The notes beneath the pieces were generated by a model. It did not search any database, was not told where the DNA came from, and saw only the letters and a list, made by a program, of their open reading frames with translations. Source: Candidatus Omnitrophota bacterium (lineage in GTDB: Bacteria; Omnitrophota; Gorgyraeia; 2-01-FULL-45-10). From it: 64,000 nt of DNA. A program made the position numbers and the translations under genes. Shown piece after piece: positions 17,953-45,358 of this stretch (position 1 is its first letter; the number at the start of each line of letters is the position of its first letter). The stretch lies in contig JBAZNZ010000001.1 of NCBI GenBank assembly GCA_041648975.1, positions 40,961 to 104,960 of the forward strand. Reading direction: 5' to 3'.

Positions 17953-17976
17953 TTTTTTTTGGATTCAAAATTAGCA

Positions 17977-18036
17977 TATGCCCAAGCATAAGACAATATT
18001 TTTTTGTCTAAAAAATGAGCATGTGCCAAAGCACAT
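17977..18036 (+). promoter_or_regulatory. operators O2 (TATGCCCAAGCATA, 17977-17990) and O3 (ATGTGCCAAAGCACAT, 18021-18036) upstream of xis
   Basis: Dyad-symmetric motifs related to O1, positioned between the repressor gene and the excisionase RBS (GGAGGTGGGAG, ATG 18054). Confidence 0.5.
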
Positions 18037-18053
18037 AACCATGGAGGTGGGAG

Positions 18054-19287: not shown

Positions 19288-19320
19288 ATAGAGATTGCTT
19301 CGCTTCGCTCGCAATAACGA

Positions 19321-19344
19321 TAGGGCACACTAAAGTGTGCCCTA
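19321..19344 (+). promoter_or_regulatory. perfect 10-bp-arm palindrome TAGGGCACAC-TAAA-GTGTGCCCTA just after the int stop
   Basis: Seen directly. No T tract follows, so it may be a terminator-like hairpin or a protein site. Confidence 0.35.
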
Positions 19345-19363
19345 CAATACGATGGGATGGGAT

Positions 19364-19387
19364 TTTGTCACGAAATTGTCACGCTGC
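19364..19387 (+). repeat. right arm-type repeat (TTTTGTCACGaaatTGTCACGCTGC)
   Basis: Matches the left-end 24-mer at 9259-9282. Confidence 0.5.
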
Positions 19388-19404
19388 GAAAAATTCACAC
19401 CAAT

Positions 19405-19809
19405 TTACCGACGGAGAGACCACTTCACGTCACACACCCCCGTCGTCCCCGCCAATTGGTAAAGGGAGCGCTCGATAGATAATGTCGGAAGGTACCTTCC
19501 GACGAAAAATTTATCCGCCGCCATATAAAAGTAGTAACTGGTTAAATACCAGCCCTTTAGCCGTAACAAGTTGATAACACGACTGGTTACGGCTATTTTA
19601 TTTGTCTTGCGTGTTTTGAGAATTAGTAAGTTGACAGACGTCCTATTTAGCACGCTTGAAAGCATAGCTACATCATGTTCAGTGAATGCAAACGGTAATA
19701 TGTAAGAATGTTTCCTTGTTTTGAACTGGTGCCAAATTGGCACCAGTTCCTTCCATTCCTCATCGGTAAGTTGAAACATAAATTCTTTAGGAGATCTCAC
19801 GGGACACAT
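19405..19809 (-). pseudogene. N-terminally truncated ORF6N-domain protein whose 3' end runs into attR
   Basis: FMFQLTDEEWKELV...LPFAFTEHDVAMLSSVLN matches the conserved ORF6N core, but the about 40-aa N-terminal part typical of the family is absent. The last about 10 codons lie in attR/island DNA. Confidence 0.35.
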
Positions 19810-19891
19810 TATTTAATTCAGTTGAATTAGGTATTGTGTCCCCCAAATTTAAGTGGGATGGCCCCACTAGTCAGGTCTGCACAAGCAGGAG

Positions 19892-21052: not shown

Positions 21053-21219
21053 ATAAATTCCCCTTTCGTGCTATTGAAGTTGACTTCAATTGTACAAATC
21101 GTAATTGAAGAAGTCAAGCATTTTCTTCAATTAGAGCTACGCAGACCTTTAGCTACCCCGGGCCTACTTAATACTAATAATGCACTTGACTACATTAAAA
21201 CTCGTGCTATACTTGTATC

Positions 21220-22723: not shown

Positions 22724-23029
22724 ATGCGAAGAAGAAACGGCAACGCGGAAATAGCGGACATGGCTTTCGCGCTTAAGAGCATCGCCCACCGGGATCGCCT
22801 GAAGATATTGATGCTCCTGGCCTGCAGGAAAGAGCTCTCCGTCTCAGAACTGCAAAAAGGGGTGGGGCTCACTCAGTCGATGACAAGCCAGCACCTCTTG
22901 GCCATGAAGGCGCGGGGAGTGCTCTTGTCCGAGAAGCGGGATAACAGGGTATTCTATTCGATACGGAATAAAAATGTCCTGAAGGTCATGGCGTGCATGA
23001 AGAAGTGCGCCGGGAAAGAGGGGATATGA
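22724..23029 (+). CDS. ArsR/SmtB family transcriptional regulator
   Basis: HTH region DRLKILMLLACRKELSVSELQKGVGLTQSMTSQHLLAMKARG. Start set at ATG 22724 (leaderless). The ORF-track frame begins at TTG 22688. Confidence 0.75.
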   Translation: MRRRNGNAEIADMAFALKSIAHRDRLKILMLLACRKELSVSELQKGVGLTQSMTSQHLLAMKARGVLLSEKRDNRVFYSIRNKNVLKVMACMKKCAGKEGI

Positions 23030-25359: not shown

Positions 25360-26147
25360 AGAAGATACTGTATCCGCTCTGCGCGGCGGCCGCCCTGATG
25401 GCGGCGGGGCCGCTTAATGCGGAAATAACGGCCGGGGAGATCGTAAAGAACGCCAACCACGCGGCGTATTACGAAGGCAAAGACGGCAGGGCGAAGGCGA
25501 GGATGGTCATCACCGATTCCCAGGGCAGGACGCGGGAGCGGGTCATTACAATACTTAAACTCAATATAGCGGACGGCGGCGAACAGAAGTATTACGTCTA
25601 TTTCCACAAACCGAGCGACGTTAAGAATATGAGCTACCTGGTCTGGAAATACATAGGAAGAGACGACGACAGGTGGCTCTATCTGCCGGCGCTCGATCTG
25701 GTGCGCAGGGTGGCGGCGAGCGATAAACGGTCGAGTTTCGCGGGGACGAACTTCCGGTATGAGGATATCTCAGGCAGGAATCCGGATGAGGATGACCATG
25801 AGCTTGTCGGCTCGGGAGGGGATTTCTATGAATTGAAGAACACGCCGAAGAATCCCGGCTCTGTCGAGTTCGCGTACTATACCGCGCGCATCGACAAGAA
25901 GAACTTCATTCCGATGAAGGCCGATTATTATGACAAGTCCGGCAAGGTCTACCGGATCGTCGAGGCCCTCGAGGTCAAGGAGATAGAGGGGCATCCGACA
26001 ATAACGAAGATGAAAGCCTCGGACCTCAACTCCAACTCCTCGACTGTTACGGAATTCACGGATATTAAGTACGATGTAGGGCTGAATGACGGGATATTCA
26101 CGGAGCGGTATCTGCGCAGGGCTCCGTCGCAATGGATCGGGCAGTAG
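25356..26147 (+). CDS. LolA-like outer-membrane lipoprotein-sorting family protein (periplasmic)
   Basis: Signal peptide MKKILYPLCAAAALMAAGPLNA. Size and position next to the MMPL exporter match the conserved MMPL/LolA-like/beta-barrel triad. Confidence 0.5.
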   Translation: MKKILYPLCAAAALMAAGPLNAEITAGEIVKNANHAAYYEGKDGRAKARMVITDSQGRTRERVITILKLNIADGGEQKYYVYFHKPSDVKNMSYLVWKYIGRDDDRWLYLPALDLVRRVAASDKRSSFAGTNFRYEDISGRNPDEDDHELVGSGGDFYELKNTPKNPGSVEFAYYTARIDKKNFIPMKADYYDKSGKVYRIVEALEVKEIEGHPTITKMKASDLNSNSSTVTEFTDIKYDVGLNDGIFTERYLRRAPSQWIGQ

Positions 26148-26155
26148 GGGTTAAT

Positions 26156-27448
26156 ATGATGAAGATACGAGCCGCCTTATTTACCGCTATGGCTATCCTG
26201 TACGCCTTTGGCGCGGCGTACGCGGCCGATATGCCGAAGCTGCATGGTTTTGTCGAAGCCAATATCGGGTTGAAGGTCAATGACGACAAGCTGGCGGCGA
26301 AGAACGGCTATAACATGGCCGAACAGCGCGCCGAGTTCACGCTCCGTTATTTTCCGGACGAGTTGTATATCCTCAAGAAGTGGAACACCGAGATATTCTT
26401 CAAGACGGACGTCCTTATCGACGAGTATACCGAGCGGCCGAAATGGTGGCTTCCGCGGGAACTCTACGCGGCTTTTACCCCGCTCGATTTTCTCGATCTT
26501 AAGATCGGCGAGCAGATACTCACGTGGGGCACCGGCGACTACATATTCATAAATGATCAATTTCCGAAAGACTACGTCTCATTTATAATAGGAAGAGACG
26601 ACGACTATCTCAAACTGCCTTCCTACGCGGCGAAACTCACGTTCTTTACCAGGATCGCGTCGCTTGACCTGATCGCCATCCCGTACTTTACGCCGAATAA
26701 AGTGCCGGACGGCGGCAGGATATCGTTCTTCGACCCGCTCTTTGGCCGGATAGTCGGCGCGCAGTCGGACAGGTACCTGCACGAACCCGCCGCGCAGTTC
26801 GAGAATACCGAAATAGCCCTCCGGCTCTACGGCACGATAGAAAGTTACGAATGGGCGCTGTATTATAACCACGGCTTCTATAAGAACCCTGCAGGCTATG
26901 AAAATCAGCGGACCGGCATCCTCTATTATCCCCAGCTCGACGTCTACGGCGCGAGCGTCCAGGGGCCCGTCCCCATGATCGGAGGTATCGCCAATTTTGA
27001 GACCGGCCTTTTCAATTCAAAGGAGGACGACTATGGCAGGAACCGGCTGGTTCAGGATTCGACCATGCAGTATCTTGCCGGATATAAGCGGGGTTTCAAG
27101 AACGATCTTGAGGTCGGCATCCAGTACTACATCATCCAGATGCTGCATTACACCGCCTACAAGAAAAGCCTTTTGCCCGGCGACTACCAGGATGACAAGG
27201 TGTATCAGCAGTACACGTTGAGGCTTACGAAACTTTTCGCGGGCCAGACGGTCAACGCGTCTTTATTCGTGTTTTACAGCCCCGTCGATAACGACGCGTA
27301 CTTAAGGCCGGTGCTCTCATGGAAAGCCACCGACTCATGGAGCCTCGTTGTCGGCGGTAATATATTCCTGGGGGACCAGGATAACGCCGATTGGGGGCAG
27401 TATAAAGGCGATTCGAATATTTACGGGCGTTTGCGTTACAGCTACTAA
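26156..27448 (+). CDS. outer-membrane beta-barrel protein (DUF1302-like)
   Basis: Signal peptide, alternating amphipathic strands, C-terminal aromatic (…RLRYSY). Genomic association with the MMPL exporter. Confidence 0.5.
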   Translation: MMKIRAALFTAMAILYAFGAAYAADMPKLHGFVEANIGLKVNDDKLAAKNGYNMAEQRAEFTLRYFPDELYILKKWNTEIFFKTDVLIDEYTERPKWWLPRELYAAFTPLDFLDLKIGEQILTWGTGDYIFINDQFPKDYVSFIIGRDDDYLKLPSYAAKLTFFTRIASLDLIAIPYFTPNKVPDGGRISFFDPLFGRIVGAQSDRYLHEPAAQFENTEIALRLYGTIESYEWALYYNHGFYKNPAGYENQRTGILYYPQLDVYGASVQGPVPMIGGIANFETGLFNSKEDDYGRNRLVQDSTMQYLAGYKRGFKNDLEVGIQYYIIQMLHYTAYKKSLLPGDYQDDKVYQQYTLRLTKLFAGQTVNASLFVFYSPVDNDAYLRPVLSWKATDSWSLVVGGNIFLGDQDNADWGQYKGDSNIYGRLRYSY

Positions 27449-32159: not shown

Positions 32160-32341
32160 GCCCCGCCCGGACCCGGATTTGTCTTGATTTTTGGTGAAAA
32201 AGCGGTAAAATATGAGCCGATAACGTTGTAGTAGTCCCAAGTTTGAAGGTGGGTCTGGATCGTGAATAAAGAGAAACCTTTGCTAATTAGGCGATGCCTG
32301 ATAGCGAAGGTTTTTTGCGCTTAAAAGCGCCTGAAATTAAT

Positions 32342-34138
32342 ATGATAAATTTTTTATCAAAAGAACTCTTTCTTTTGGATCCCCTGGCAATATTCTTCCT
32401 TGCGGTCATAGGTTTCGTTTCGATACCCTCGGCGATATTTTCGATAGGTTATATGAGCGGCGAATCGATGGGGAAGAAACTGCTCGACTGGGCGCTCCTG
32501 GCGGCATTCATAATATCGATGTGCCTCGTAGTAACCGCAGGCAACCTCTTCTCATTCCTCATATTCTGGGAGCTGATGTCGCTCGCTTCATATTTTCTCG
32601 TAGTATCCGACTATAAGCATGAAAGGTCCATACAGGCCGGCACGATATACTTCATCATGACCCATGTGGGCACAGCCTGTCTCATGGCGGCCTTCTTCAC
32701 CCTTTATAATTACAGTAATTCCTTCGATTTTTCCGCGGTCATTCAGGGGGCCGCAGTAATGCCTCCCCAAATACGCAATGTCGTCTTCCTGCTTCTATTG
32801 ACCGGATTTTCGACGAAGGCGGGCGTCGTGCCTTTACATATCTGGCTGCCTTACGCGCATCCTCAAGCGCCGAGCCACGTCTCGAGCATAATGTCGGGCG
32901 TGATGATAAAGATCGCGATATACGGCATGATACGTTTCTTTGTGACGCTTCTGGGCCCCGGATCCGCGTGGTGGGGCGCGCTTATTTTGGTCCTCGGAAT
33001 GATATCGTGCCTTGTCGGCGTAATATATGCCCTCATGGACCACGACCTGAAGAAATTGCTGGCCTATCATAGCGTCGAGAATATCGGGATAATCCTTTTG
33101 GGCGTAGGCGCCGCCATCTTTTTCGGGAACCTCGGCTTAGGCGCCGTCGCGGCGCTGGCCATGTGCGCAGGGCTGTACCATCTGATAAACCACGCGTTAT
33201 TTAAAGGGCTTCTATTCCTTTGTTCGGGGAGCGTATTTAAGGCGACGGGGCTGCGCGACATGGAGAAGATGGGAGGCCTTATCAAGACTATGCCGCAGAC
33301 CGCCTTCTTTTTCCTGGTCGGGGCAATGGGCATCTCCGCGCTTCCCCCCTTGAACGGATTTGTCAGCGAGTGGCTCACCTTCCAGGCGTTCTTCTTGGGC
33401 GTCCTGCAGTCGCAGGGGGCCGTAAAGATATTTATGGTCCTGTCCGCGGCGGTGTTGGCCCTGACGAGCGGTCTCGCGGCGGCCTGTTTCGTTAAGGCGT
33501 TCGGCATCGCATTCCTTGCCATGCCGCGGAGTAAGCGCGCCCGGGAATCGAAAGAGGTTTCATTTTCGATGAAGGCAGGCATGGCGCTATTGGCCGTTGG
33601 TGTGGTGGTATTCGGCATGGGGGCAGGATTTGTCGCGCCCTTGATCATGGGAGTTTCACAGGATGCGCTTGGGATGGAAAAGGCCGCGGGGCCTTTTCAT
33701 CTCGTATCGGCCCTGCCTCCGATGATCGCGGCGGCATTACTTGTTATAGGAGGTGTGATCTTCCTGTGGTTCAAATTCGGGTTACGCCGAAAACAGGTCC
33801 GCTACAATACGTGGGATTGCGGATATTATGCCCTCGACAGCCGTAACGAATATACGGCGACCGCATTCTCGAAGCCGTTCAGGATAGCGTTCAGCTTTTT
33901 CCTGTTGCCATACCGGAAGAGCGAGAAGATAAGAGATTCTTTCTACCATATCCGCAAATTTACATACGAGACGCATACTACCCTGGTATTTAAAAATTAT
34001 TTTTACGACCCGCTGGTGCGCATGGTCTACCAGGCAGCGGTCAAGATACGCAAGCTGCAGCCGGGGAGCATACATCTGTATATCCTTTATATCTTCATCA
34101 CCCTGGCGACGTTGCTGATAATCACGGCGGTCTTCTAA
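32342..34138 (+). CDS. hydrogenase-4 component B-like / NuoL-type antiporter-like membrane subunit
   Basis: About 600-aa polytopic protein with Mrp/ND5-family signatures (WLPxAHxxAPxxVSxxxHSxTMV-like: WLPYAHPQAPSHVSSIMSGVMIK). Confidence 0.75.
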   Translation: MINFLSKELFLLDPLAIFFLAVIGFVSIPSAIFSIGYMSGESMGKKLLDWALLAAFIISMCLVVTAGNLFSFLIFWELMSLASYFLVVSDYKHERSIQAGTIYFIMTHVGTACLMAAFFTLYNYSNSFDFSAVIQGAAVMPPQIRNVVFLLLLTGFSTKAGVVPLHIWLPYAHPQAPSHVSSIMSGVMIKIAIYGMIRFFVTLLGPGSAWWGALILVLGMISCLVGVIYALMDHDLKKLLAYHSVENIGIILLGVGAAIFFGNLGLGAVAALAMCAGLYHLINHALFKGLLFLCSGSVFKATGLRDMEKMGGLIKTMPQTAFFFLVGAMGISALPPLNGFVSEWLTFQAFFLGVLQSQGAVKIFMVLSAAVLALTSGLAAACFVKAFGIAFLAMPRSKRARESKEVSFSMKAGMALLAVGVVVFGMGAGFVAPLIMGVSQDALGMEKAAGPFHLVSALPPMIAAALLVIGGVIFLWFKFGLRRKQVRYNTWDCGYYALDSRNEYTATAFSKPFRIAFSFFLLPYRKSEKIRDSFYHIRKFTYETHTTLVFKNYFYDPLVRMVYQAAVKIRKLQPGSIHLYILYIFITLATLLIITAVF

Positions 34139-34140
34139 CT

Positions 34141-35022
34141 ATGATAAATATGGATAATATTATCGCGGTCATATGGAAGACGGTTCTGCTGGCGCTCGCC
34201 GCGCCGCTCGTGAGCGGCGTCATACGAAAGATCAAAAACAACCTCCGCATGCGGAAAGGGCCGACCATATTCCAACCCTACTTAGACGCGCGCAAACTTT
34301 TCCTGAAGGATGAGGTCGTTTCAAATAACGCGTCGTGGATATTTTACGCGGCGCCTGTCATAGTCTTTGCCTCGAGCGTATGCGCGCTTACAATGATCTT
34401 AGCCGCGGGCAAGGCGCCTTTAATGAATGACGGCCTGGCGATCCTCATAGCCGCGCTATTTGTGCTGGGCCTGGGACGCTTCTTCCTGGCCCTGGCCGGT
34501 CTCGACGCAGGCTCCTCGTTCGGCGGGATGGGTTCGTCCCGGGAGATGTTCATTTCAAGTTTTGCCGAGCCGGCGGCTTTCATCGCCGTATTTGTCCTGT
34601 GCATGGGCGGCGGGGACGGATTCAGGATCTCGAACGTTCTGGCGGGATTCGCGCTCTCGATGGTCGCGCTCGCCGAGACTTCGCGGATACCTGTGGACAA
34701 CCGGGAGACGCATCTGGAATTGACGATGGTCCACGAGGCGATGGTGCTCGAATATTCGGGCAGGTCGCTGGCGCTCATAGAATTGGCAAGCCATATAAAA
34801 CAGATGGCGTTCTTTACTCTGATCACCTTCTTTTTTATAGCGCCTGCCGCCTTATGCCCGGCATGGCCGCAATTTGCGGTCAAAATAGCGGTGATCGCTT
34901 TAGTCTTTGCGCTCGTAGAAATATCGGTGGCAAAGATGCGGCTCTTCAGGGTGGTGGATTTTCTGACTTTTTCTTTTTTTGTAGCGCTCATCGCAACGAT
35001 CGCGGCGGGCCTGGGGCTATGA
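34141..35022 (+). CDS. NuoH/HycD-like membrane subunit
   Basis: Conserved ETHLELTMVHEAMVLEYSGRSLALIE region (E...E...YSG, as in NuoH/HycD). Confidence 0.65.
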   Translation: MINMDNIIAVIWKTVLLALAAPLVSGVIRKIKNNLRMRKGPTIFQPYLDARKLFLKDEVVSNNASWIFYAAPVIVFASSVCALTMILAAGKAPLMNDGLAILIAALFVLGLGRFFLALAGLDAGSSFGGMGSSREMFISSFAEPAAFIAVFVLCMGGGDGFRISNVLAGFALSMVALAETSRIPVDNRETHLELTMVHEAMVLEYSGRSLALIELASHIKQMAFFTLITFFFIAPAALCPAWPQFAVKIAVIALVFALVEISVAKMRLFRVVDFLTFSFFVALIATIAAGLGL

Positions 35023-35086
35023 AGCCCATGGTTATAATCGTCGGGGCGGAATCCCGCCCCGAGCAGGACAAATAGCGGGATAAGAA

Positions 35087-35725
35087 ATGACACTCACATT
35101 CATACTTAGCGGTTTTTTGATAGTAACCTTTCTCCTCGTGACCGCGAAGAGGATCACGGCGCTCATCCGGACGTTCAGGATCCAGTCCGTATTCTTATTC
35201 CTTTACACATTTTATATGGCATATAACCAGAATCATCTTGAGCTCTTTGTCGTATGCGGCCTGGTCTTCGCGCTTAAAGCGGTGGTCATCCCGTTCGTAC
35301 TTCTTCGCATTATGCGGCGCATCAAAGCGGAAGAGGACCTGGGCCTCCTGGTGAATCCCCAGATCTCGCTTGTCATAGCGCTCATCTTCGCGTACCTTTC
35401 GTATCTTTTTGCCCATAACGCGATGTCGCTCGGGAATTCTCCGGAATCCGCGGCGTTCGTAGTTTCGATAACGGCGCTGTGCGTCGGTTTCTTCATAATG
35501 GTAAGCCGGATGAAGGCATTCGGCCAGATCATCGGGCTCCTGGTTATGGAAAACGGCATATTTCTCGCCGCGGCGGCCATAGCCGGCGGCATGCCGTTCT
35601 TCGTCGAGATCGCGCTCTTTTTCGACGTCTTCGTCTTCGTTATAATATTGGAAATATTCATATATAAAGTGAACAGGCTCTTTACGCACATCGATACCTC
35701 TAAGATGAAATCGTTAAAAGGATAG
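35087..35725 (+). CDS. HyfE-like small membrane subunit (212 aa)
   Basis: Polytopic protein of the size and position of hydrogenase-4 component E in hyf-type operons. Confidence 0.5.
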   Translation: MTLTFILSGFLIVTFLLVTAKRITALIRTFRIQSVFLFLYTFYMAYNQNHLELFVVCGLVFALKAVVIPFVLLRIMRRIKAEEDLGLLVNPQISLVIALIFAYLSYLFAHNAMSLGNSPESAAFVVSITALCVGFFIMVSRMKAFGQIIGLLVMENGIFLAAAAIAGGMPFFVEIALFFDVFVFVIILEIFIYKVNRLFTHIDTSKMKSLKG

Positions 35726-35727
35726 AC

Positions 35728-37191
35728 ATGCTTATCGCTTCGATAGTAATTATACCTGTGATCTTATTGATCCTCTCTCCGCTTGTAAAGAAGGTGAAGT
35801 TGTTGGGGGTCATAAACGCTTCAGGTTACCTGGTTTTGCTTGCAGCTTGCGTCTTCTTCTTAAAGGATTTTTCGGCTGCAGGGAGCGCCGCTGTAAGCCT
35901 ATGGGGATGGGTCTACATCGATTCTTTAAGCGTCTTCTTCCTGTTTACTACGGCAATAGTAAGTTTTGCCGCGGCCGTATATTCTATCGGTTATATCACC
36001 TCGGAGGTGGAGGAAGGGAAGATATCCGCCCACAAGGCATGCGCGTACTATCAATTATTTAACCTCTTTTCACTAACAATGCTTGTCGTCCCGCTTCTGA
36101 ACAACCTTGCGCTTGTGTGGATCGCAATAGAGATGACGACGCTCATATCGGCGTTCCTTGTCGGGTTCCATAACGTGAAGGAGTCGATCGAGGCGGCGTG
36201 GAAATATATCATCATCTGCTCTGTCGGGATCACCTTCGCGCTTTTGGGAATAATATTCTTTTATTACACCTCTTCAAGGGACGCAGGGGTCAAGTCCCTG
36301 GAGTGGGCAAGCATGCTTGCCGGGTCGGGAATGTTCGATCCTAAGATAGTGAAGCTCGCGCTCGTCTTCATCATGGTCGGATATGGCACGAAGGCGGGTT
36401 TTTCGCCGATGCATAACTGGCTACCGGATGCCCACAGCCAGGCTCTTTCTCCTATAAGCGGGTTATTATCCGGGGTGCTTCTCAAGATATCGTTGTACGC
36501 TATATTGCGTTTCGTGATGCTCGCTAACCTCTCGGCAGGATATGCGTACAGCGCGAAGCTGTTTATCCTCTTTGGCATCGTCTCCATGGGTATAGCGGGC
36601 TCCTTTATCCTGGTGCAGAAAGACCTGAAGAGGCTTCTGGCTTATTCGAGCATAGAGAATATAGGGCTCGTATCTTTAGGCCTGGGATTCGGGCCGTTCG
36701 GCGGGATATTCGCCGGCCTCCTCCAGGCATTTAACCACGCCGTGACCAAGGCGCTTATGTTCTTCTCGGCCGGGGAAGCCGTTCGCGCTTACCGCGGTAA
36801 TAATATGAACCAGATGCAGGGCATGATAAGGCTTATGCCTTTCGCGGGGACGGCGCTCTTCCTCGGATTTTTCGCTCTTGTCGGGATGCCGCCTTTCTCC
36901 ATATTTGTAAGCAAATTATCGATACTCATAGCGGCGTTCCAGGGCGGGTATTTTCTCATCGCGAGCCTCGCGCTTATATTTATAGCCCTTGCTTTCGCCG
37001 GGCTTCTCTATCACATATCAAGGATAGCCCTGGGGAATGTGCCCCATACAGCGTGGGCGCAAAAAGAGCCGCTTAGCTCGAAGATAGCCTTACTCTTCTT
37101 AGGTATATTTATCCTGGGATTCGGTTTATATATTCCTCAAACGTTTTTGAACCTGCTTGCCGGCTGCGAGCGGCTTATTTTGGGCAGATAG
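35728..37191 (+). CDS. NuoM/N (HyfF)-type antiporter-like membrane subunit
   Basis: 487 aa, proton-conducting membrane transporter family (WLPDAHSQALSPISGLLSGVLLK). Confidence 0.7.
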   Translation: MLIASIVIIPVILLILSPLVKKVKLLGVINASGYLVLLAACVFFLKDFSAAGSAAVSLWGWVYIDSLSVFFLFTTAIVSFAAAVYSIGYITSEVEEGKISAHKACAYYQLFNLFSLTMLVVPLLNNLALVWIAIEMTTLISAFLVGFHNVKESIEAAWKYIIICSVGITFALLGIIFFYYTSSRDAGVKSLEWASMLAGSGMFDPKIVKLALVFIMVGYGTKAGFSPMHNWLPDAHSQALSPISGLLSGVLLKISLYAILRFVMLANLSAGYAYSAKLFILFGIVSMGIAGSFILVQKDLKRLLAYSSIENIGLVSLGLGFGPFGGIFAGLLQAFNHAVTKALMFFSAGEAVRAYRGNNMNQMQGMIRLMPFAGTALFLGFFALVGMPPFSIFVSKLSILIAAFQGGYFLIASLALIFIALAFAGLLYHISRIALGNVPHTAWAQKEPLSSKIALLFLGIFILGFGLYIPQTFLNLLAGCERLILGR

Positions 37192-38775
37192 ATGGATAAT
37201 ATAAAAATTGTTTCGGATATACTGGCTTCCAAAAAGATCGATGTGACGGATCTGGCTGTTCTGCACCGGAACGAATTGTATATTGCCGTGTCCGGAGAAC
37301 ATTTCGTAAAGGCCTGCAACCTTCTGCATAAGGCCTTAAACTCTCCGGTAATGATGTTATTCGCGGAAGACATGCGGCCGTCGTCGGGCGTATATATGCT
37401 TTATTGCGTATTCTTGAACGTCCATACGCGTTGCTGGATATTTGTGCGGCAGGAGATCGCGCCCGGCGATATGAAGTTCTACTCTCTCGCGAAGGACATA
37501 TACTCCGCCAGCCTTTTTGAACGCGAGGTAAAAGAGATGTTCGGTATTGAGCCGTCAGGCAATCCCGACACCAGGAGGCTCAAGCTTCACAATGAGGTCT
37601 GGCCCGGAGGATATTATCCTCTGCGCAAAGATTTTATCCCTCCCCGGGACGACATTGGCGGGGAGTCGCTCTACCAATTTAAGCGCGTGGAAGGCGAGGG
37701 CGTTTTTGAAGTCCCTGTCGGTCCCGTCCATGCGGGCATAATAGGCCCGGGACATTTCAGGTTCAGCGTGGCGGGCGAGCCCATAATCAATTTGGAGACA
37801 AGGCTTGGCTGGACGCATAGAGGCGTAGAGAAACTGCTCGAAGGCAAAGACCCGCGTGAGGCGGTAAAGATATTCGAATGCGTAAGCGGCGACACGGCGT
37901 TCGGATACAGCCAGGCGTTCTGCCAGAGCGTCGAAAAGGTCCTTGGTTTAGAGATCCCCGATAGGGCGCAAATTATACGCGTATTATGTCTCGAACTCGA
38001 GCGGCTGTACAATCACGCCAATGACATGGGCGGGATCGCCCTCGATGTCGGTTTCAGCTTTCCCGCGCAATTCGCAAGCCTTGTTAAAGAGAATATCCTT
38101 CAGCTTAACCAAAGCCTTAGCCTCTCGCGGTATCTTAAAGGCATTAACGCCATCGGAGGGGTAGAGCAGGACATCGGCCCGGAGAAGATAGCGCTTATTC
38201 AAAAAGCGCTGCCGAATATTCAAAAAGATCTCCTCGCCCTCGAAGAGATGCTCTTCTCCAGCGTATCTTTTATGGACCGGGTAGACACAACCGGGACACT
38301 GCGTGTCACAACGGCGCGCGATCTCGGGGTAACCGGAGTTGCCGCGCGAGCTAGCGGCATAGCGCTCGATATACGAAAGGGTTTTCCCGGCGCGTACGGC
38401 AAATTTTCTTTCAATATCGCAAAAGAACATTCGGGAGATGTGGCCGCACGCCTGAAGGTCAGGTGCATAGAGGCGAAGGAATCGATCAGTCTCGTCCGGC
38501 AGTGCATAGAGAAGCTAGGAAGCTGTGAAGGCTCCCTTAAAGCCGCGGCGCAATATAAGGAAGGCATCGCATTGGGAGTTGTGGAGGCATGGCGCGGCCC
38601 GGTGCTCGTATGGACGCGGCTGAACATCGAAGGCAGGATCGCGCGGTGTAAGATAGTAGATCCTTCTTTCCACAATTGGGAGGGGCTCTCTTACGCCGTC
38701 ATCGGCAATATAATCCCGGATTTCCCGTTGTGCAATAAAAGTTTCGACCTGTCATATTCAGGTAACGACCTATGA
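37192..38775 (+). CDS. fused NuoC-NuoD / HycE-like large subunit LACKING the [NiFe]-binding cysteines (Ehr-like)
   Basis: Strong similarity to HycE (HAGIIGPGHFRF; ...VEKVLGLEIPDRA). The N-terminal RxCGxCxxxH motif is replaced by ECVSGDTAFGY, and the C-terminal DPCxxCxxR motif by DFPLCNKSF, so at most one Cys per motif. Confidence 0.7.
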   Translation: MDNIKIVSDILASKKIDVTDLAVLHRNELYIAVSGEHFVKACNLLHKALNSPVMMLFAEDMRPSSGVYMLYCVFLNVHTRCWIFVRQEIAPGDMKFYSLAKDIYSASLFEREVKEMFGIEPSGNPDTRRLKLHNEVWPGGYYPLRKDFIPPRDDIGGESLYQFKRVEGEGVFEVPVGPVHAGIIGPGHFRFSVAGEPIINLETRLGWTHRGVEKLLEGKDPREAVKIFECVSGDTAFGYSQAFCQSVEKVLGLEIPDRAQIIRVLCLELERLYNHANDMGGIALDVGFSFPAQFASLVKENILQLNQSLSLSRYLKGINAIGGVEQDIGPEKIALIQKALPNIQKDLLALEEMLFSSVSFMDRVDTTGTLRVTTARDLGVTGVAARASGIALDIRKGFPGAYGKFSFNIAKEHSGDVAARLKVRCIEAKESISLVRQCIEKLGSCEGSLKAAAQYKEGIALGVVEAWRGPVLVWTRLNIEGRIARCKIVDPSFHNWEGLSYAVIGNIIPDFPLCNKSFDLSYSGNDL

Positions 38776-39302
38776 GCATAAATATCATTAAGAACAGTTT
38801 TAGAAAAGGGAGAGTCACTATTTCGCTCGACCCAAAGCTTTCGCCTCTGCCTCCCGAGATAGAGAAGATGGGGCCGACGCTTAAGAGGGCGATCCACGCG
38901 AAATTCGGGAGGTCTTTCCATATCCGTGAAGTGGATACAGGCTCCTGCGGCGCATGCGAATCGGAGATAATCGCCTGCTCGAATCCTTTGTATGATATAC
39001 AGCGTTTTGGGATAGATTTTGTCGCTTCCCCCCGCCATGCGGACGCGCTCCTGGTCACGGGTCCGGTCTCAAAAAATATGGAGCTTGCGCTCAAAAAAAC
39101 CTACGACGCGATGCCCGACCCGAAATTCGTGATAAGCCTGGGCGATTGCGCGAAAGACGGGGGACTGTTTAAGGGTTCCTACTATACCTGCGGCGGCGTT
39201 AAGAATGTCCTGCCTGTCGTTTTACACATACCGGGATGTCCGCCGGATCCGGCTACGATAATTAAAACATTATTGGCTTTTCTGTCCCGCCGCAAGCCAT
39301 GA
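38772..39302 (+). CDS. NuoB/HycG-like small subunit retaining 4 Cys for a [4Fe-4S] cluster
   Basis: GSCGACESE, LGDCAKDGG, IPGCPP motifs (group-4 small-subunit pattern GSCNGC...C...GCPP). Confidence 0.7.
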   Translation: MSINIIKNSFRKGRVTISLDPKLSPLPPEIEKMGPTLKRAIHAKFGRSFHIREVDTGSCGACESEIIACSNPLYDIQRFGIDFVASPRHADALLVTGPVSKNMELALKKTYDAMPDPKFVISLGDCAKDGGLFKGSYYTCGGVKNVLPVVLHIPGCPPDPATIIKTLLAFLSRRKP

Positions 39303-39498: not shown

Positions 39499-39804
39499 AT
39501 GCGCCCGAAAAAGACGAGATGGATAAAGTGCCGCCCAGGTGAGAGGTGTTTTAAGCCGATGTGCAAGCCTTTAGGTAAGGTAAAGAGCGTATGCCTTACT
39601 CTGGACGAATTCGAGGCGATACGGCTCTCCGACCTGGAAGGGTTGGAACAGCTTGCCGCGGCCAAACAGTTTAAGATATCGCGTCCGACGTTCTCGAGGA
39701 TATTGTCGGCGGCGCGTAATAAGATAGCTGACGGCCTGGTCAATATCAAGGCGATCAGGATAGAAGGCGGCTGCTGTCAAATCATCAAAGGGAGCGGAAA
39801 GTGA
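39499..39804 (+). CDS. DUF134 (UPF0251) predicted DNA-binding protein
   Basis: 101 aa with the C-terminal sigma70-region-4-like HTH typical of DUF134 (EFEAIRLSDLEGLEQLAAAKQFKISRPTFSRIL). Confidence 0.65.
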   Translation: MRPKKTRWIKCRPGERCFKPMCKPLGKVKSVCLTLDEFEAIRLSDLEGLEQLAAAKQFKISRPTFSRILSAARNKIADGLVNIKAIRIEGGCCQIIKGSGK

Positions 39805-40973
39805 AAGATTGGAAGAAACTTTTATACGTTGTAGCGGCTTTTTTGGCGTGTTTCTACCTGCCGATCGAGAATTTGCGGTTTACCAACGCTATATTTGAAG
39901 CTTTGGCTTTGGTTAAATGGTACGCCCGCGAGCACGTTCTTCTATGCCTCGTGCCGGCGTTCTTTATAGCAGGAGCTATATCGGTATTTGTCAGTCAGGC
40001 TTCCGTCATGAAATATTTTGGAGCCAGGGCGAATAAAATTCTTTCTTACAGCGTGGCTTCCGCGTCGGGAACAATCCTCGCCGTATGTTCCTGCACTGTT
40101 TTGCCTCTATTCTCAGGGATTTATAAAAGAGGGGCAGGGCTTGGCCCTGCGATGGCTTTTCTGTATTCGGGGCCGGCTATAAATGTTTTAGCTATCATTT
40201 TGACCGCACGCATTCTTGGCTGGCAGTTAGGCTTGGCCAGAACCATAGGTGCGGTGCTATTTAGCGTAGTTATCGGCATTCTTATGCACCTTATATTTTT
40301 AAAGGAGGAACGCGCGCGCCATGTTTCCGGAGATCTTCAGTTTGGCGAAGTTAAAACAACAAGGCCGCTTTGGAAAGATATGGTTTATTTCTTCTCTATG
40401 GTCGCAATACTTGTTTTCGCTAATTGGGGGAAGCCTTTAGAGGGTGATACGGGAATATGGAGCGTAATCTACGGCTATAAATGGTGGATAACAGGATTTT
40501 TCTTAGCGGTTTTAACATATACTCTTTTTAGCTGGTTCAAGAAAGATGAGTTAAAAGATTGGACTCAAGCCAGCTGGGGATTCGCTTTACAGATATTACC
40601 GCTGCTTCTGGGAGGCGTTTTAATATCCGGATTCCTTCTGGGCAGAGTTGGTCATGAAGGCATTATTCCTTCCCGTTGGGTGGAGGCGCTGGTTGGAGGA
40701 AATTCTTTAAGAGCGAATTTCTTTTCCTCAATTGTGGCGGCGTTTATGTATTTCGCCACGCTTACCGAGGTGCCTATTTTACAGGGCTTGATCGGGTCCG
40801 GGATGGGTAAAGGGCCCGCCCTGGCGCTTCTACTGGCCGGACCCGCTTTGAGCCTGCCGAGTATGCTGGTTATTCGAGGAGTTATAGGCACAAAGAAAAC
40901 CGTTGTTTATGTCAGTCTCGTTGTGGTTATGGCGACGATAAGCGGCATGATATTTGGAGCGATAGTTAAATGA
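39801..40973 (+). CDS. ArsP-like permease (DUF318/YraQ family), putative organoarsenical efflux
   Basis: Two-repeat permease. AVCSCTVLP resembles the ArsP TPFCSCS motif. Gene context is arsM/acr3/arsC. Confidence 0.5.
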   Translation: MKDWKKLLYVVAAFLACFYLPIENLRFTNAIFEALALVKWYAREHVLLCLVPAFFIAGAISVFVSQASVMKYFGARANKILSYSVASASGTILAVCSCTVLPLFSGIYKRGAGLGPAMAFLYSGPAINVLAIILTARILGWQLGLARTIGAVLFSVVIGILMHLIFLKEERARHVSGDLQFGEVKTTRPLWKDMVYFFSMVAILVFANWGKPLEGDTGIWSVIYGYKWWITGFFLAVLTYTLFSWFKKDELKDWTQASWGFALQILPLLLGGVLISGFLLGRVGHEGIIPSRWVEALVGGNSLRANFFSSIVAAFMYFATLTEVPILQGLIGSGMGKGPALALLLAGPALSLPSMLVIRGVIGTKKTVVYVSLVVVMATISGMIFGAIVK

Positions 40974-41752
40974 GAAACGATGCTGATAAAATTAAAAAGA
41001 TCGTCAGGGATGGCTATGCGAAGGCAGTGACACAGAAGTCTTCATGCTGTTCTACTAAATCTTGTTGCGGAGGCATAGACCAAGCTAAAGATATAAGCAA
41101 GATCGTCGGCTATAGTGATTCAGAAATAAACGCTGTTCCCGAAGGGGCGAATTTAGGCTTTGGGTGCGGTAATCCGGTTGCGCTTGCCTCGTTAAAAGAA
41201 GGCGATGTTGTGCTTGATCTGGGCAGCGGGGCGGGGTTTGACGCATTTTTGGCAGCGCAGAGAGTCGGCAAGACAGGCAGGGTTATCGGCGTTGATATGA
41301 CTCCGGAGATGCTCGCAAAGGCGAAGGAAAATGCGAAGAAAGGTAAGTATACCAACGTGGAGTTTCGCTTAGGTGATATTGAAAAGCTTCCGGTTGAAGA
41401 TGATTCTATCGATGTGATCATTTCAAACTGTGTTATTAACCTCTCGCCTGATAAAGAGGAAGTATTTAAAGACGCTTACAGGGTCTTGAAGGCAGGAGGC
41501 CGATTGATGGTCTCGGATTTGGTGTTAGCAAAAGATCTGCCACAAGAAATCAAGGACTCTGTCGAGGCGTATGTGGGATGCCTTGCCGGAGCCATTAAAA
41601 AAGAGGAATATCTGTGTTGTATTGAACAGGCGGGATTCCAAGATATCAAAATTATAAGCGAATCGAGTTATCCGGTAGATGCCATGTTTGATGATCTTGA
41701 GGCCGCTCAGGACGCGATAGTAAGTGTCAAAGTCGCGGCGGTTAAAAAATAA
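40970..41752 (+). CDS. arsM: arsenite S-adenosylmethionine methyltransferase ArsM
   Basis: Conserved Cys pairs (CCSTKSCCGG) plus SAM motif VLDLGSGAGFDAF. 260 aa. Confidence 0.7.
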   Translation: MRNDADKIKKIVRDGYAKAVTQKSSCCSTKSCCGGIDQAKDISKIVGYSDSEINAVPEGANLGFGCGNPVALASLKEGDVVLDLGSGAGFDAFLAAQRVGKTGRVIGVDMTPEMLAKAKENAKKGKYTNVEFRLGDIEKLPVEDDSIDVIISNCVINLSPDKEEVFKDAYRVLKAGGRLMVSDLVLAKDLPQEIKDSVEAYVGCLAGAIKKEEYLCCIEQAGFQDIKIISESSYPVDAMFDDLEAAQDAIVSVKVAAVKK

Positions 41753-41764
41753 CGGAGGCATAAA

Positions 41765-41998
41765 ATGAAAATCGAAATATTAGGTGTCGGTTGTCCCAAA
41801 TGCAAACAGCTTACCGCTAATGCTGAGGCGGCTGTCAAGGAGCTGAACATTCAGGCGGAGATTGGGAAAATTACGGATATCGACAAGATTACTGAATATG
41901 GAGTGATGATGACTCCGGGCCTTGCGGTCGATGGAACAGTGGTTTCAGCGGGCAAGGTATTGAGCAAAGACGAGATCAAAAAGATTTTATCGAAATAA
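41765..41998 (+). CDS. thioredoxin-family small redox protein (redox-active disulfide protein 2-like)
   Basis: MKIEILGVGCPKCKQL is a CPKC active site in a 77-aa protein. Confidence 0.65.
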   Translation: MKIEILGVGCPKCKQLTANAEAAVKELNIQAEIGKITDIDKITEYGVMMTPGLAVDGTVVSAGKVLSKDEIKKILSK

Positions 41999-42010
41999 GG
42001 GAGGACATTA

Positions 42011-42415
42011 ATGGGCAATTGCATGTGTCAAGAGGCGGGTGTTTTGATATTTCCGTGCTCCGGCGGGTCGGATGTGGGCGAACTGTCTGACCGCGTAGCT
42101 CGCAAGATGGCCAAATGCGGGCAGGCGAAGATGTTTTGTCTGGCTGGTGTTGGGGCGCATATCCCGGGGATGATTGAGTCAACAAAGGCGGCGAATAAAA
42201 TTATCGCTATCGACGGATGTCAGGTTTTATGTTCGAAAAAGATTCTTGAACACGCTGGATTCAATCCAATTTCTTTTAATCTTAAAGAAATGGGATTTGA
42301 GAAAGGCAAGACTCAGATTACTGAGGAAATTATCGAAAAAGCGGCTAATAAAATTTCAGGAGGTAAAAGTGAAGAGACTTCTTCTCGTAATTCTGGCGGC
42401 TGTTGCGGTAATTAG
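42011..42415 (+). CDS. DGC-domain putative metal-binding protein
   Basis: Cys-rich (CMCQ..FPCSGG..AIDGCQVLC). The eponymous DGC motif is present. Confidence 0.5.
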   Translation: MGNCMCQEAGVLIFPCSGGSDVGELSDRVARKMAKCGQAKMFCLAGVGAHIPGMIESTKAANKIIAIDGCQVLCSKKILEHAGFNPISFNLKEMGFEKGKTQITEEIIEKAANKISGGKSEETSSRNSGGCCGN

Positions 42416-42788
42416 CTCCGCGATAGCCTTCGCGGCAGATAGCAATTCAGTGAAAGTCATAGCGTATTATTTTCATGGGTCATTCCGTTGCCCCACGTGT
42501 ATGAATATGGAGAAGTATTCAAGGGAAGCGATTGATTCAAATTTCAAAGACGCTCTTGCTTCAGGCAATCTTGAGTTCAAGGTTGTTGATGTGGAGGAGC
42601 GCGGCAACGAGCATTTCGTGAATGACTATAAGCTATATACCAAAACGCTTATCCTCTCGATGATCAAGGATGGTAAGGAAGTTAAATCAAAAAATCTTGA
42701 TAAGATTTGGGAGCTCGCCCGCAATAAGCAGAAATTCATCGAGTACGTTGCCGGAGAAGTGAACGCTTTTATGAAGGACGCTCGATAA
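42369..42788 (+). CDS. periplasmic thioredoxin-fold protein (CPTC), partner of CcdA
   Basis: GTG start 42369 after AGGAGG. Signal peptide, then YYFHGSFRCPTCMNME. Immediately upstream of a DsbD/CcdA-type membrane protein. Confidence 0.5.
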   Translation: MKRLLLVILAAVAVISSAIAFAADSNSVKVIAYYFHGSFRCPTCMNMEKYSREAIDSNFKDALASGNLEFKVVDVEERGNEHFVNDYKLYTKTLILSMIKDGKEVKSKNLDKIWELARNKQKFIEYVAGEVNAFMKDAR

Positions 42789-43474
42789 TGGAATTATTAA
42801 TCGCTTTCGGTTCGGCATTATGGCTGGGGATATTGACCTCGATCAGCCCTTGTCCTTTGGCCACGAATATCGCGGCGGTGTCGTTTCTTTCAAAGAAGAT
42901 AGCCCATCCATTTATGGTGTTTGTATCCGGGCTCGCCTATACGCTGGGCAGGATGGCTGCTTATGCGGTTCTTGGCTGGATCATTATAAGTTCTCTTTTA
43001 AGCGTGCCGCAGGTGGCTCAGTTTTTGCAGAAATACATGGTTAAGGCTTTAGGCCCTCTACTCATAATCACCGGATTATTTTTGCTGGAAGCGCTTACGA
43101 TAAAATTGCCCGGCGTGGCGTTATCTCAAAAGCATCACAATAAGCTGGTGGAGTCCGGCGCACCGGGGGCTTTTCTTTTGGGCCTTATCTTCGCCCTGGC
43201 GTTTTGTCCGGTTTCAGCGGCGTTATTCTTCGGAAGTCTTATTCCTCTGGCGCTTAATAGTAAGGCGGGAACTTTGCTGCCGTTTATTTACGGTGTAGGG
43301 ACAGGGCTTCCGGTCTTGATATTCGCTATTGCTATTGCATTAGGCGTCACTTCAATGAGCCGCTGGTTTAGTAAGATCACAAAGCTTGAATACTATACCC
43401 GCAGGATCACCGGAGGGATTTTTATTCTTGTCGGGTTGTATTACGCGGGGATTTACATCTGGAAATTGTTTTAA
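42788..43474 (+). CDS. CcdA/DsbD-family transmembrane thiol-disulfide electron transporter
   Basis: SISPCPL and a second Cys in TM helices. 6 TM. Confidence 0.65.
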   Translation: MELLIAFGSALWLGILTSISPCPLATNIAAVSFLSKKIAHPFMVFVSGLAYTLGRMAAYAVLGWIIISSLLSVPQVAQFLQKYMVKALGPLLIITGLFLLEALTIKLPGVALSQKHHNKLVESGAPGAFLLGLIFALAFCPVSAALFFGSLIPLALNSKAGTLLPFIYGVGTGLPVLIFAIAIALGVTSMSRWFSKITKLEYYTRRITGGIFILVGLYYAGIYIWKLF

Positions 43475-43482
43475 GGTAGACG

Positions 43483-44292
43483 GTGGAAATAGACAAAGAT
43501 AAGCGTTACGAAATAATAGTTTTTTCTAATCAAGAGGAAGGCCTGAAGGCCCAAAGGATACTGGTTACAAAAGGCATAGGTTTTAAACATATTTCGACAT
43601 TAGCGGTTGTGGTGCCCGGATCCGAGCGGCAGATGATCTGTAAAACTCTTATCGATGAAGGCGCTTCGATAAGCGGTTATTATGATTTCCTCTACCGTGA
43701 TTATGAAGATGATTTTTTTAGGAAGGCAGAGAGTTACAAGGCATCCGACAAGGGCGGTGAATTTTTAAAGAATATCACATTGTGTTATGTCGCGCCCTGT
43801 ATGGCTGATGAGAAGAAGATACGGCTGATCGCGTATTTTGACCGCAACATAACAGAAATCCTGCCGTATCTGAATGCAGTTATAAAAAGAGCTTCGTATA
43901 ATAAAAACGCTTCTACATTAACCTACGCAAAAGAAAAGCGCCTTATTAATCTATATAATGTTAAGGTAACGATTGCCAAGGCTGACGACATTATTGACGC
44001 ATGGGTTGTGCTGGATGAGATCAAAAGACTTATTAACGATACTTATAGCCAAAAGGACAGCATAAAACCCAGTTATGAAGAAAAGATCAAGGTAACCGCT
44101 CTTCAAATTTACGGCTGGCTCCCGAAGACAAATTGCAGGGCTTGCGGCGAAGCGACGTGTCTTGCTTTTGCGTGCAGGCTTTTACTGGGAGAACAGAAAC
44201 TTTCAAAATGCGTTCCATTGTCAACAGAACAAAAATTTGCGGAGAATAGAGAGATTATGCAAGAGATGGCAGAAGCATTAGGCGTCGCTTGA
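43483..44292 (+). CDS. DUF3343-like N-terminal domain fused to a C-terminal putative Fe-S cluster domain (CX2CX4CX16C)
   Basis: C-terminus [26 protein letters not shown]. The N-terminus resembles the small Se/S-carrier-like DUF3343. Confidence 0.4.
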
Positions 44293-44311
44293 TAAGGATA
44301 AGGAGGCAGAT

Positions 44312-45358
44312 ATGGGCGAAGGTATTGTTAAAAAACTATCATTCTTGGATAGATTCCTGACTCTATGGATATTTTTAGCTATGGCGACCGGTGTGCTCTG
44401 GGGATATTTCTATCCTTCGGTCGTCGGTTTTTGGAATAAATTCCAAGTCGGAACTACTAATATTCCGATTGCCATAGGACTGATCCTTATGATGTACCCG
44501 CCGCTTGCCAAGGTGCGTTATGAGGACCTTGGAGATGTGCTGCGCGATAAAAAGGTGCTTATTTTATCGCTTATACAGAACTGGATCATCGGTCCTGCGC
44601 TCATGTTTGTCCTGGCAATTATATTCCTCAGGGGATATCCGGAGTATATGGTCGGGCTTATCCTTATCGGCATTGCCAGGTGCATTGCCATGGTGATCGT
44701 TTGGAATGAGCTTGCCAGGGGGGATACGGAATATTGCGCCGGCCTGGTCGCTTTCAATTCTTTTTTTCAGGTAATATTTTATTCAGCGTATGCCTGGTTC
44801 TTCATTACGATCGCCCCTACATGGTTCGGGCTTAAGGGCATGGTTGCGCCGGTATCCATGGCACAGATCGCGCACAGCGTGTTTATTTATTTGGGCATTC
44901 CTTTTATCGCGGGTATGCTGACGCGTTTTGTTGTGATTAAAATAAAAGGTAAAATCTGGCATCATGAAAAATTTATCCCTCGCATCAGCCCTTTGACATT
45001 GATAGCGCTATTATTCACCATAGTCGTTATGTTCTCTATGAAGGGCGAATATATCGTTAAGATACCCCTGGATGTCGTAAGGATCGCGATACCGCTTCTT
45101 ATTTACTTTGTTATTATGTTTATCGTTTCATTCTATATGAGCAGTAAGGCCAGGGCCGGCTACGCCAAGAGCGCGACACTTTCGTTTACTGCGGCAAGTA
45201 ATAACTTTGAGCTTGCGATCGCTGTGGCCGTCGCGGTGTTCGGGATAAATTCAGGGCAGGCGTTTGCCGCGGTCATTGGGCCGCTGGTCGAAGTGCCGGC
45301 GCTCATCGGGTTGGTCAATGTGGCGCTCTATTTCAAAAGGAAGCATTTTGGTGAATAA
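44312..45358 (+). CDS. acr3: ACR3-family arsenite efflux transporter
   Basis: 348-aa, 10-TM BART-superfamily protein with an N-terminus typical of Acr3 ([20 protein letters not shown]). Confidence 0.8.

Follow-up and report, generated by a model that had tools for sequence, protein, structure and literature searches.

Our study examined a 64 000 nt stretch of contig JBAZNZ010000001.1 (positions 40 961 to 104 960, forward strand) of the Candidatus Omnitrophota bacterium assembly GCA_041648975.1, hereafter the window, which carries six tightly packed plus-strand genes between window positions 32342 and 39302. All six open reading frames (ORFs) are intact and follow one another in the order A-B-C-D-L-S with intergenic gaps of 2, 64, 2, 0 and -4 nt, the last being a 4 nt overlap (ATGA) of ehrL and ehrS. 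The ORF calls and the matches to Pfam and NCBIfam profiles agreed with a preliminary description of the sequence, which had listed HyfB-, NuoH-, HyfE- and HyfF-like proteins, a fused NuoC-NuoD/HycE-like protein and a NuoB/HycG-like protein in this order. The operon very probably encodes an intact and selectively maintained energy-converting hydrogenase-related (Ehr) complex in a minimal, six-subunit form. Its features are collected in Table 1.

Table 1. Genes, motifs and candidate regulatory site of the Ehr operon (window positions)
Feature	Description	Position	Strand	Basis
ehrA	Antiporter-like subunit (HyfB/HycC/NuoL type) with C-terminal ND3/NuoA-like extension, 598 aa	32342..34138	+	
ehrB	NuoH/HycD/MbhM-like anchor subunit, 293 aa	34141..35022	+	PF00146 2e-33; HycD 7z0s_D 2e-21
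ehrC	HyfE-like small membrane subunit, 212 aa, ~6-7 hydrophobic segments	35087..35725	+	
ehrD	Second antiporter-like subunit (HyfF/NuoM-N type), 487 aa	35728..37191	+	
ehrL	Fused NuoC and NuoD/HycE-like large subunit without NiFe ligands, 527 aa	37192..38775	+	
beta1-beta2 loop of EhrL	H180-AGIIGPGHFR	37729..37761	+	HycE alignment
Degenerate N-terminal NiFe motif	ECVSGDTAFGYS (hydrogenases: RxCGxCxxxH)	37876..37911	+	HycE alignment
Degenerate C-terminal NiFe motif	DLSYSGNDL, stop codon directly after	38746..38772	+	HycE has DPCxxCxx[HR] and a cleaved tail
ehrS	NuoB/HycG-like small subunit, one [4Fe-4S] site, no Fer4 domain, 176 aa	38772..39302	+	PF01058 1e-29
Candidate sigma-70-like promoter	TTGATT-16-TAAAAT	32184..32211	+	Consensus scan, 9/12 matches; 182-nt gap 5' of ehrA

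The profile matches placed each protein within a known superfamily. EhrA matched PF00361 (2e-59), PF00662 and the NCBIfam HyfB model ('hydrogenase 4 subunit B', 2e-188), and its closest solved structure was HycC (7z0s_C, 3e-74). The longest ehrA ORF begins at 32294; however, the start was taken as 32342 (M17 of that ORF), because the N-termini of homologues fall at the same place, 10-12 residues ahead of an FDPLxxFFL motif. EhrD matched PF00361 (3e-46) and the NCBIfam HyfF model ('hydrogenase 4 subunit F', 2e-127), and EhrL matched PF00329 (NuoC), PF00346 (NuoD) and an N-terminal piece of PF00374. EhrC had no Pfam match and no PDB sequence match even at E<=1; it matched NCBIfam PRK11492 (hydrogenase 4 membrane subunit HyfE) over its full length (E=2.8e-23), at 83 bits and thus below the cut-off of 136, and its gene is found at the corresponding place in every related locus. 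A resemblance of HyfE to NuoK has been stated (PMC13645896). Every NCBIfam equivalog score lay below its curated cut-off, those for NuoD and NuoB far below; the proteins are thus members of these superfamilies, yet none of them is one of the named enzymes.

The large subunit was mapped by residue-by-residue alignment to Escherichia coli HycE (7z0s_E, E=2.9e-66). The HycE-like motifs HAGIIGPGHFRF and VEKVLGLEIPDRA, as well as ECVSGDTAFGY, all noted in the preliminary description, are present in EhrL, and the reported absence of the first pair of NiFe-ligating cysteines (L1) was confirmed: HycE RvCGiCgfaH corresponds to CvSGDTafgY in EhrL, with the first Cys replaced by S232, the second by T235, the Arg by C230 and the His by Y239. 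The second pair (L2) is also lost, as had been claimed, but at a different place; the description had located it at DFPLCNKSF, approximately eight residues too early, and the true equivalent of DPCYSC is DLSYSG. At this site HycE D529-P-C531-Y-S-C534-T-D aligns with EhrL D519-L-S521-Y-S-G524-N-D526, which is followed by L527 and the stop codon, so that the protein ends three residues past the motif and has no C-terminal maturation peptide. All four NiFe-ligating cysteines are replaced (S232, T235, S521 and G524), and EhrL is predicted to be unable to bind nickel-iron. In an alignment of 21 of the Omnitrophota EhrL homologues, the N-terminal site is kept as E-x-[IV]-[SAT]-G-D...F-x-[YHN]-S and the C-terminal IIPDFP[LV]CNKSF[DN]LSY.GNDL-stop is invariant in 21/21, apart from D/N and S/P/A variation. 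The canopy and proton-path positions of HycE (R478, D529, S283/H284, E437 and R395) correspond to EhrL R468, D519, N274/H275, E427 and R386. Alignment with Thermus thermophilus Nqo4, whose His38 and Tyr87 we take to be the quinone ligands of complex I NuoD, placed I184 at the position of H38 and G233 at that of Y87.

The small subunit has kept its redox site. Residues C59, C62, C126 and C156 of EhrS, the four cysteines singled out beforehand, align with the ligands of HycG (2.7e-35) and MbhJ (4.6e-33); they form the ligand set of a proximal [4Fe-4S] cluster in the hydrogenase-type CxxC arrangement and are kept in 68-69 of the 74 family members. When the whole 64-kb window was scanned in six frames with a regular expression, no CxxCxxCxxxC motif was found, and therefore no HycF-, NuoI- or HyfA-type protein is encoded there, in line with the earlier claim for these subunits; a hidden ferredoxin subunit within the window was ruled out on the same grounds. 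The operon contains no NuoI-like gene, and no NuoI-like, hyp, hyc, hycI, fdh or nuoE/F genes were found among the window ORFs scanned against Pfam, which comprised most of the larger ORFs; complete hyp/hyc maturation genes and a NuoI-like subunit elsewhere in the operon had been named in advance as findings that would refute the description.

Lack of a ferredoxin module had, however, been described as part of the general Ehr architecture, and this part of the description did not stand, although the subunit set did. Many other Ehr complexes have a small subunit of 244-293 aa, in which an N-terminal Fer4 dicluster is fused to the NuoB domain (Bacillota, Bacteroidota, Planctomycetota, Methanocella and Margulisbacteria), and other loci encode a separate Fer4 ORF of 107-108 aa between L and S; in Methanomassiliicoccales both the fused and the separate form occur. 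The NuoI-NuoB fusion has been noted previously for Firmicutes, archaeal and Margulisbacteria Ehr (Suppl. Note 4, PMC6349859). The window clade has neither form, and shares a short small subunit without Fer4 (167-176 aa) with Nitrospirota and Rokubacteria. Absence of the ferredoxin module is a trait of a subfamily rather than a hallmark of Ehr, and does not exclude membership.

A search of 5.8 billion proteins with EhrL gave more than 100 clusters (57-99% identity), nearly all of which derive from Candidatus Omnitrophota metagenome-assembled genomes (MAGs); with more than 100 Omnitrophota homologues, all with invariant motifs, EhrL shares 57-72% identity. An exhaustive search of 1.84 billion cluster representatives gave 873 matches below 1e-30; most of the top 150 representatives are Cys-less (SGD ... 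NLSY[SA]G.DL) and a minority keep both CxxC pairs. At least 592 matches, in which the Cys-less pattern and the gene order recur, were confirmed in a scan of one genome per species, and the matches listed span Omnitrophota, Saganbacteria, Elusimicrobia, Planctomycetota, Nitrospirota, Rokubacteria, Acidobacteriota, Bacillota, Bacteroidota, Deltaproteobacteria, Methanomassiliicoccales and Methanocella. The A-B-C-D-L-S order is kept in Omnitrophota, Saganbacteria, Elusimicrobia, Nitrospirota, Bacillota, Planctomycetota and Methanomassiliicoccales, with the order S-A-B-C-D-L and an extra A copy as variants among related loci. Rough neighbour-joining inference for the large subunit recovered the window clade as Omnitrophota, Saganbacteria and Elusimicrobia, nested within the Cys-less family; most Cys-containing relatives fell outside this family, but one (P0131) nested inside it.

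These results support the Ehr assignment made in the preliminary description, as the large subunit lies inside a Cys-less clade with the same SGD...LSY.G.DL pattern and the gene order is common across phyla. In the literature, Ehr complexes are placed near the group 4 hydrogenases (close to 4f), lack the CxxC motifs and consist of NuoB, NuoCD, NuoH, HyfB, HyfF and HyfE homologues. The Saganbacteria and Nitrospirota members of the family found here are those that have been named Ehr (PMC6349859, PMC10284858, PMC12342949), and further reports concern Geobacter (GSU0739-45; PMC7894505), Margulisbacteria as well as Saganbacteria (PMC6349859), the candidate phyla radiation (PMC7304191), Nitrospira (PMC10284858, PMC12342949) and ammonia-oxidizing archaea (PMC10432482). 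Knowledge of the family dates from 2005/2013. All Ehr subunits were abundant in formate-grown Geobacter (PMC7894505), and such complexes are therefore expressed. Our literature search for a link between Omnitrophota and Ehr found no paper. The window clade shows three reductions, namely the absence of a fused NuoI-like Fer4 domain, the absence of the proton-donor Glu of the beta1-beta2 loop and a short N-terminus of the NuoL-like subunit, and this stripped-down form is typical of Omnitrophota bacteria.

One explanation, in line with public annotations, would be that the operon encodes a genuine [NiFe] group-4 hydrogenase or a complex I, and that its odd motifs are sequencing errors or signs of a decaying operon. 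The proteins do match hydrogenase and Nuo families in Pfam and NCBIfam, and the source annotations follow those names. However, more than 100 clusters (57-99% identity) and other phyla share the substitutions, the reading frames are uninterrupted and show translational coupling, the maturation peptide and the H38/Y87 quinone ligands are absent, all NCBIfam equivalogs score below their cut-offs, and no NuoE/F/G/I, NuoA/J/K or hyp genes occur among the scanned window ORFs. We consider this explanation extremely improbable, and the hydrogenase, complex I and pseudogene readings were all rejected on this evidence. A frameshift or sequencing error, which the preliminary description had named as a possible source of the missing cysteines, was ruled out by conservation of the motifs across phyla and among more than 100 homologues, and decay into a pseudogene by the intact, coupled ORFs and the invariant motifs.

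The window clade also differs from its relatives in two carboxylates near the former active site. In HycE, D192/E193 on the beta1-beta2 loop has been described as the proton donor to the terminal Cys, and the complex I equivalent is a His (PMC9474812). This position is occupied by I184/G185 in EhrL (37741-37746). Gly or Pro at the E193 position is confined to the window clade, whereas all other Ehr and the Cys-containing relatives have Glu. The canopy Asp of HycE (D529), on the other hand, is retained as D519 in the window (38746-38748) and is Asn in most other Ehr, so that a loop Gly with a canopy Asp stands against a loop Glu with a canopy Asn. Among Cys-less large subunits, in counts uncorrected for phylogeny, 117 combine Glu with Asn and 118 Gly/Pro with Asp, compared to 11 with Glu and Asp and 17 with Gly/Pro and Asn. 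The two carboxylates are nearly mutually exclusive in these counts, although this may reflect no more than two clade-level events. As the clade is without the loop carboxylate, its substrate is suggested not to be protonated by the usual beta1-beta2 route.

The residues of the membrane arm are largely conserved, using the numbering of E-channel and coupling residues from the formate hydrogenlyase (FHL) structure (PMC9474812). EhrA keeps the Glu of transmembrane helix (TM) 5 (FWELMS), the Lys residues of TM7 (STKAG) and TM8 (MIKIA), the TM11 HxxxHxxxK motif, the TM12 Glu (FVSEW, equivalent to HycC E391) and the ND3-loop Cys (WDCGYY, equivalent to HycC C537); the TM7 Lys has been lost in HycC itself (L208). 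In EhrB, the E-channel residues R113, E135, E143, E179, E189, E193 and E199 correspond to HycD R108, E130, E138, E189, E199, E203 and E206, the changes being E201 to H191 and Y102 to Phe. EhrD shows the TM5 Glu (IEMTT) and the Lys residues of TM7 (GTKAG), TM8 (LLKIS) and TM12 (FVSKLS). Judged by these residues and those of EhrL, the machinery by which FHL, MBH and complex I link chemistry at the active site with ion movement is intact. EhrA starts at the equivalent of residue ~72-76 of other Ehr A subunits, or residue 73 of HycC, and lacks ~62 N-terminal residues compared to other Ehr A subunits, HycC, MbhH and NuoL. This short form was seen across the Omnitrophota/Saganbacteria clade when compared with loci L016, L020, L024, L027, L033, L043, L049 and L083, and approximately two N-terminal transmembrane helices are predicted to be missing from the A subunit of the clade.

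Comparison with known systems places the complex closest to previously described Ehr, with which it shares the subunit set, the gene order and the pattern of Cys replacement by Ser, Thr or Gly (SGD...LSY.G.DL). The membrane-arm composition of Margulisbacteria Ehr (PMC6349859, Suppl. Note 4) is identical to that of the window, the subunit names of Geobacter Ehr also match, and Saganbacteria Ehr members share its subclade. The window has one A copy, whereas some Planctomycetota and Deltaproteobacteria Ehr have two. Of the solved structures, E. coli FHL (Hyd-3/Hyd-4, group 4a; PDB 7z0s) was the best match for four subunits. FHL/Hyf and the window complex have in common the NuoC-NuoD fusion, the ND3-like C-terminus of the antiporter subunit, the E-channel and canopy residues and the extra Hyf-type arm (HyfE, HyfF). 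Unlike FHL, the window complex is without the NiFe ligands, the E193 equivalent and the C-terminal peptide for HycI cleavage, as well as HycF, HycB, FdhF and HyfA, and no hyp/hyc accessory genes lie nearby among the ORFs scanned.

The MBS/MBX (6u8y) and MBH (6cfw) complexes of Pyrococcus furiosus are members of this superfamily too. MBS, a relative of hydrogenases that has given up H2 production, provides a possible model, in which the substrate is reduced at or near the proximal [4Fe-4S] cluster with coupled ion pumping; PMC9474812 also remarks on its chemistry. In our comparison, MbsL (5e-23) and MbsJ (1e-15) scored more weakly than MbhL (6e-33) and MbhJ (5e-33), and more weakly than HycE and HycG. 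MBS and MBH have 13-14 subunits, with a NuoI-like subunit (MbsN in MBS) and a full Mrp module, compared to the six genes of the window, and MbsL keeps the loop carboxylate (PMC9474812) that EhrL does not. Complex I (Nuo, Nqo) shares the 'universal adaptor' of NuoB, C, D, H and L/M/N together with the four coupling loops, but neither the operon nor the scanned window ORFs include the NuoE/F/G NADH module, NuoI or separate NuoA/J/K, and the small-subunit CxxC is of the hydrogenase type rather than the tandem CC of complex I.

Taken as a structure, the complex consists of a peripheral arm made up of a NuoB-like subunit with one [4Fe-4S] cluster and a NuoC-NuoD-like subunit without NiFe and without the complex I quinone ligands, and a membrane arm made up of a NuoH-like anchor, a HyfE-like connector and two antiporter-like subunits, the first with an ND3-like loop. 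Because the E-channel Glu, the antiporter Glu and Lys, the canopy and proton-path residues and the ND3-loop Cys are all kept, a redox change at the single cluster is most probably coupled to translocation of H+ or Na+, as in group-4 hydrogenases and complex I. Without a NuoI-like module, electrons would have to pass straight from the donor to the cluster, the most plausible donor being a one-electron carrier that is soluble and of low potential, for example ferredoxin. The acceptor would not be H+, and probably not a canonical quinone. That the complex works as a ferredoxin-fed, redox-driven ion translocator is a tentative proposal, to which we give slightly less than an even chance; the reading as a whole, in which this mechanism is joined to membership of the Ehr family, we regard by way of compromise as rather more probable than otherwise.

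Several points weigh against this reading. The argument for ion translocation is drawn solely from residue conservation, and a 2025 study states that the 'function remains unknown' for Ehr (PMC12342949). The lost proton-donor Glu, the lack of Fer4 input and the short A subunit could equally mean a reduced or altered function. The large-subunit tree is rough and carries neither support values nor named references such as Geobacter EhrL. Clustering of flanking ORFs to find a conserved neighbouring partner gave no flanking family in more than 4 of the 18 clade loci, and none in more than 8 of the ~80 family loci; as no redox partner is kept beside the operon, the donor and acceptor named above are guesses. 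The recurrent neighbours within the family were an HTH plus PTS-EIIA regulator, an ABC ATPase and an ArsR regulator.

The reduced peripheral arm also permits the view that the complex is a redox-sensing or redox-independent cation/proton antiporter, in which an Mrp-like membrane arm works and the single-cluster arm is structural or regulatory. It would account for a complex that has no electron-input domain and is also without its catalytic metal site and loop proton donor, yet shows full conservation of the antiporter residues, and for regulators (ArsR-type, HTH plus PTS-EIIA) being counted as the only recurrent neighbours. However, a purely structural role of the arm does not readily explain why the four cluster ligands and the canopy and proton-path residues are so strongly conserved, and the NuoH-like E-channel glutamates are kept as well; we consider this view unlikely.

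The missing electron input could instead be supplied in trans by an unlinked oxidoreductase, for instance a formate dehydrogenase that has NuoE/F-like subunits, and the complex would then serve as its docking or coupling module. This 'FDH-Ehr' arrangement has been proposed for Margulisbacteria and Saganbacteria Ehr (PMC6349859), and would suit both the window form, which is without an electron-input module of its own, and the observation that Ehr subunits are most abundant in formate-grown Geobacter (PMC7894505), although the Geobacter data are correlative. The window, however, has neither fdh or nuoE/F genes among the scanned ORFs nor a Fer4 motif anywhere in its 64 kb, and no partner gene is kept within 6-10 kb in 17 clade loci or in the ~80 family loci, which leaves this arrangement quite unlikely.

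Extending the proposal of a ferredoxin-fed ion translocator to its limit, the minimal Omnitrophota-type Ehr, with six subunits and one [4Fe-4S] cofactor, could be simpler than any other redox-driven ion pump in the complex I superfamily. In such a pump the cluster would itself be catalytic, as proposed for MBS, and fed directly by ferredoxin, the substrate to be reduced would be neither quinone nor proton and would bind in a pocket formed by S232/G233/D234/T235, Y239, D519 and S521, conserved residues in place of the NiFe site, and the exchange of loop Glu for canopy Asp would mark a re-routed proton path. We offer this as a long shot.

Ehr complexes form a bridge at the level of sequence between membrane hydrogenases and complex I, and their hosts number hundreds of species and range from nitrifiers to candidate phyla, with no reaction assigned to any of them. 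The window operon represents a known and widespread family in its most reduced form and does not by itself open the Ehr question. With one redox cofactor, six subunits and no conserved neighbouring partner, the Omnitrophota form offers a clean experimental entry to the minimal coupling unit. There is also a consequence for annotation. EhrL passes PF00346 at 125 bits, and a survey of Omnitrophota scored 'respiratory complex I (PF00346)' (PMC10066038); some of the reported Omnitrophota 'complex I' may therefore be Ehr. Surveys that score complex I or hydrogenases from such matches may mis-assign respiration or H2 metabolism to Omnitrophota and to other groups. In public records, homologues are labelled 'NADH-quinone oxidoreductase subunit C' (NCBI) or 'Ni,Fe-hydrogenase III large subunit' (JGI).

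Additional features were observed at related loci. A Nitrospirota MAG carries two full Ehr operons (A-B-C-D-L-S twice) in tandem on one contig (L033, 4778-19847). In a Methanomassiliicoccaceae MAG, the Ehr operon is followed after 1.6 kb by a second group-4-like set of a different kind (L021, 13930-18581), which comprises a 911-aa antiporter-like protein, a NuoB-like protein and a 359-aa NuoD-like protein, with a 133-aa Fer4 ORF adjoining. A gene for an HTH_17 plus PTS-EIIA (Ntr-like) protein lies directly upstream of Planctomycetota-type ehrA at L066, L070, L071, L074, L077, L083 and L084, and an ArsR-type regulator recurs beside Rokubacteria and some Omnitrophota Ehr operons (for example L003, 16321-16812). 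It is possible that these two types of protein are dedicated Ehr regulators. Within the window, promoter-like sites were little enriched relative to shuffled sequences, and the candidate promoter of Table 1 is weak evidence.

The remainder of the window holds several other gene groups. Directly downstream of the operon is an arsenic-type island of lower GC content (0.45; 39499-45358), which encodes a DUF134 regulator, an ArsP permease, an ArsM-like SAM methyltransferase, a DGC-domain protein, a DsbD_2 membrane protein, a PF04060 Fe-S protein and an Acr3/SBF-family transporter. A pyrimidine biosynthesis operon occupies positions 697-7829 (pyrR-like, pyrB, pyrC, pyrK, pyrD, pyrF and pyrE-like), with a 412-aa ORF (3484-4722) between pyrC and pyrK that has no significant Pfam match, only a weak one to PHP_C. 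It is followed at ~8600-22500 by a low-GC island (0.34-0.44) that looks like an integrated mobile or defence element and contains a tyrosine integrase (18217-19287), two Fic-domain proteins, PLD-like and DUF3800 proteins, an AAA_14/DUF4143 ATPase and several ORFs without a Pfam match. Between this island and the Ehr operon lies a three-gene set (22993-27448) encoding an MMPL/RND-type transporter, a LolA-like protein and a 438-aa protein without a Pfam match.

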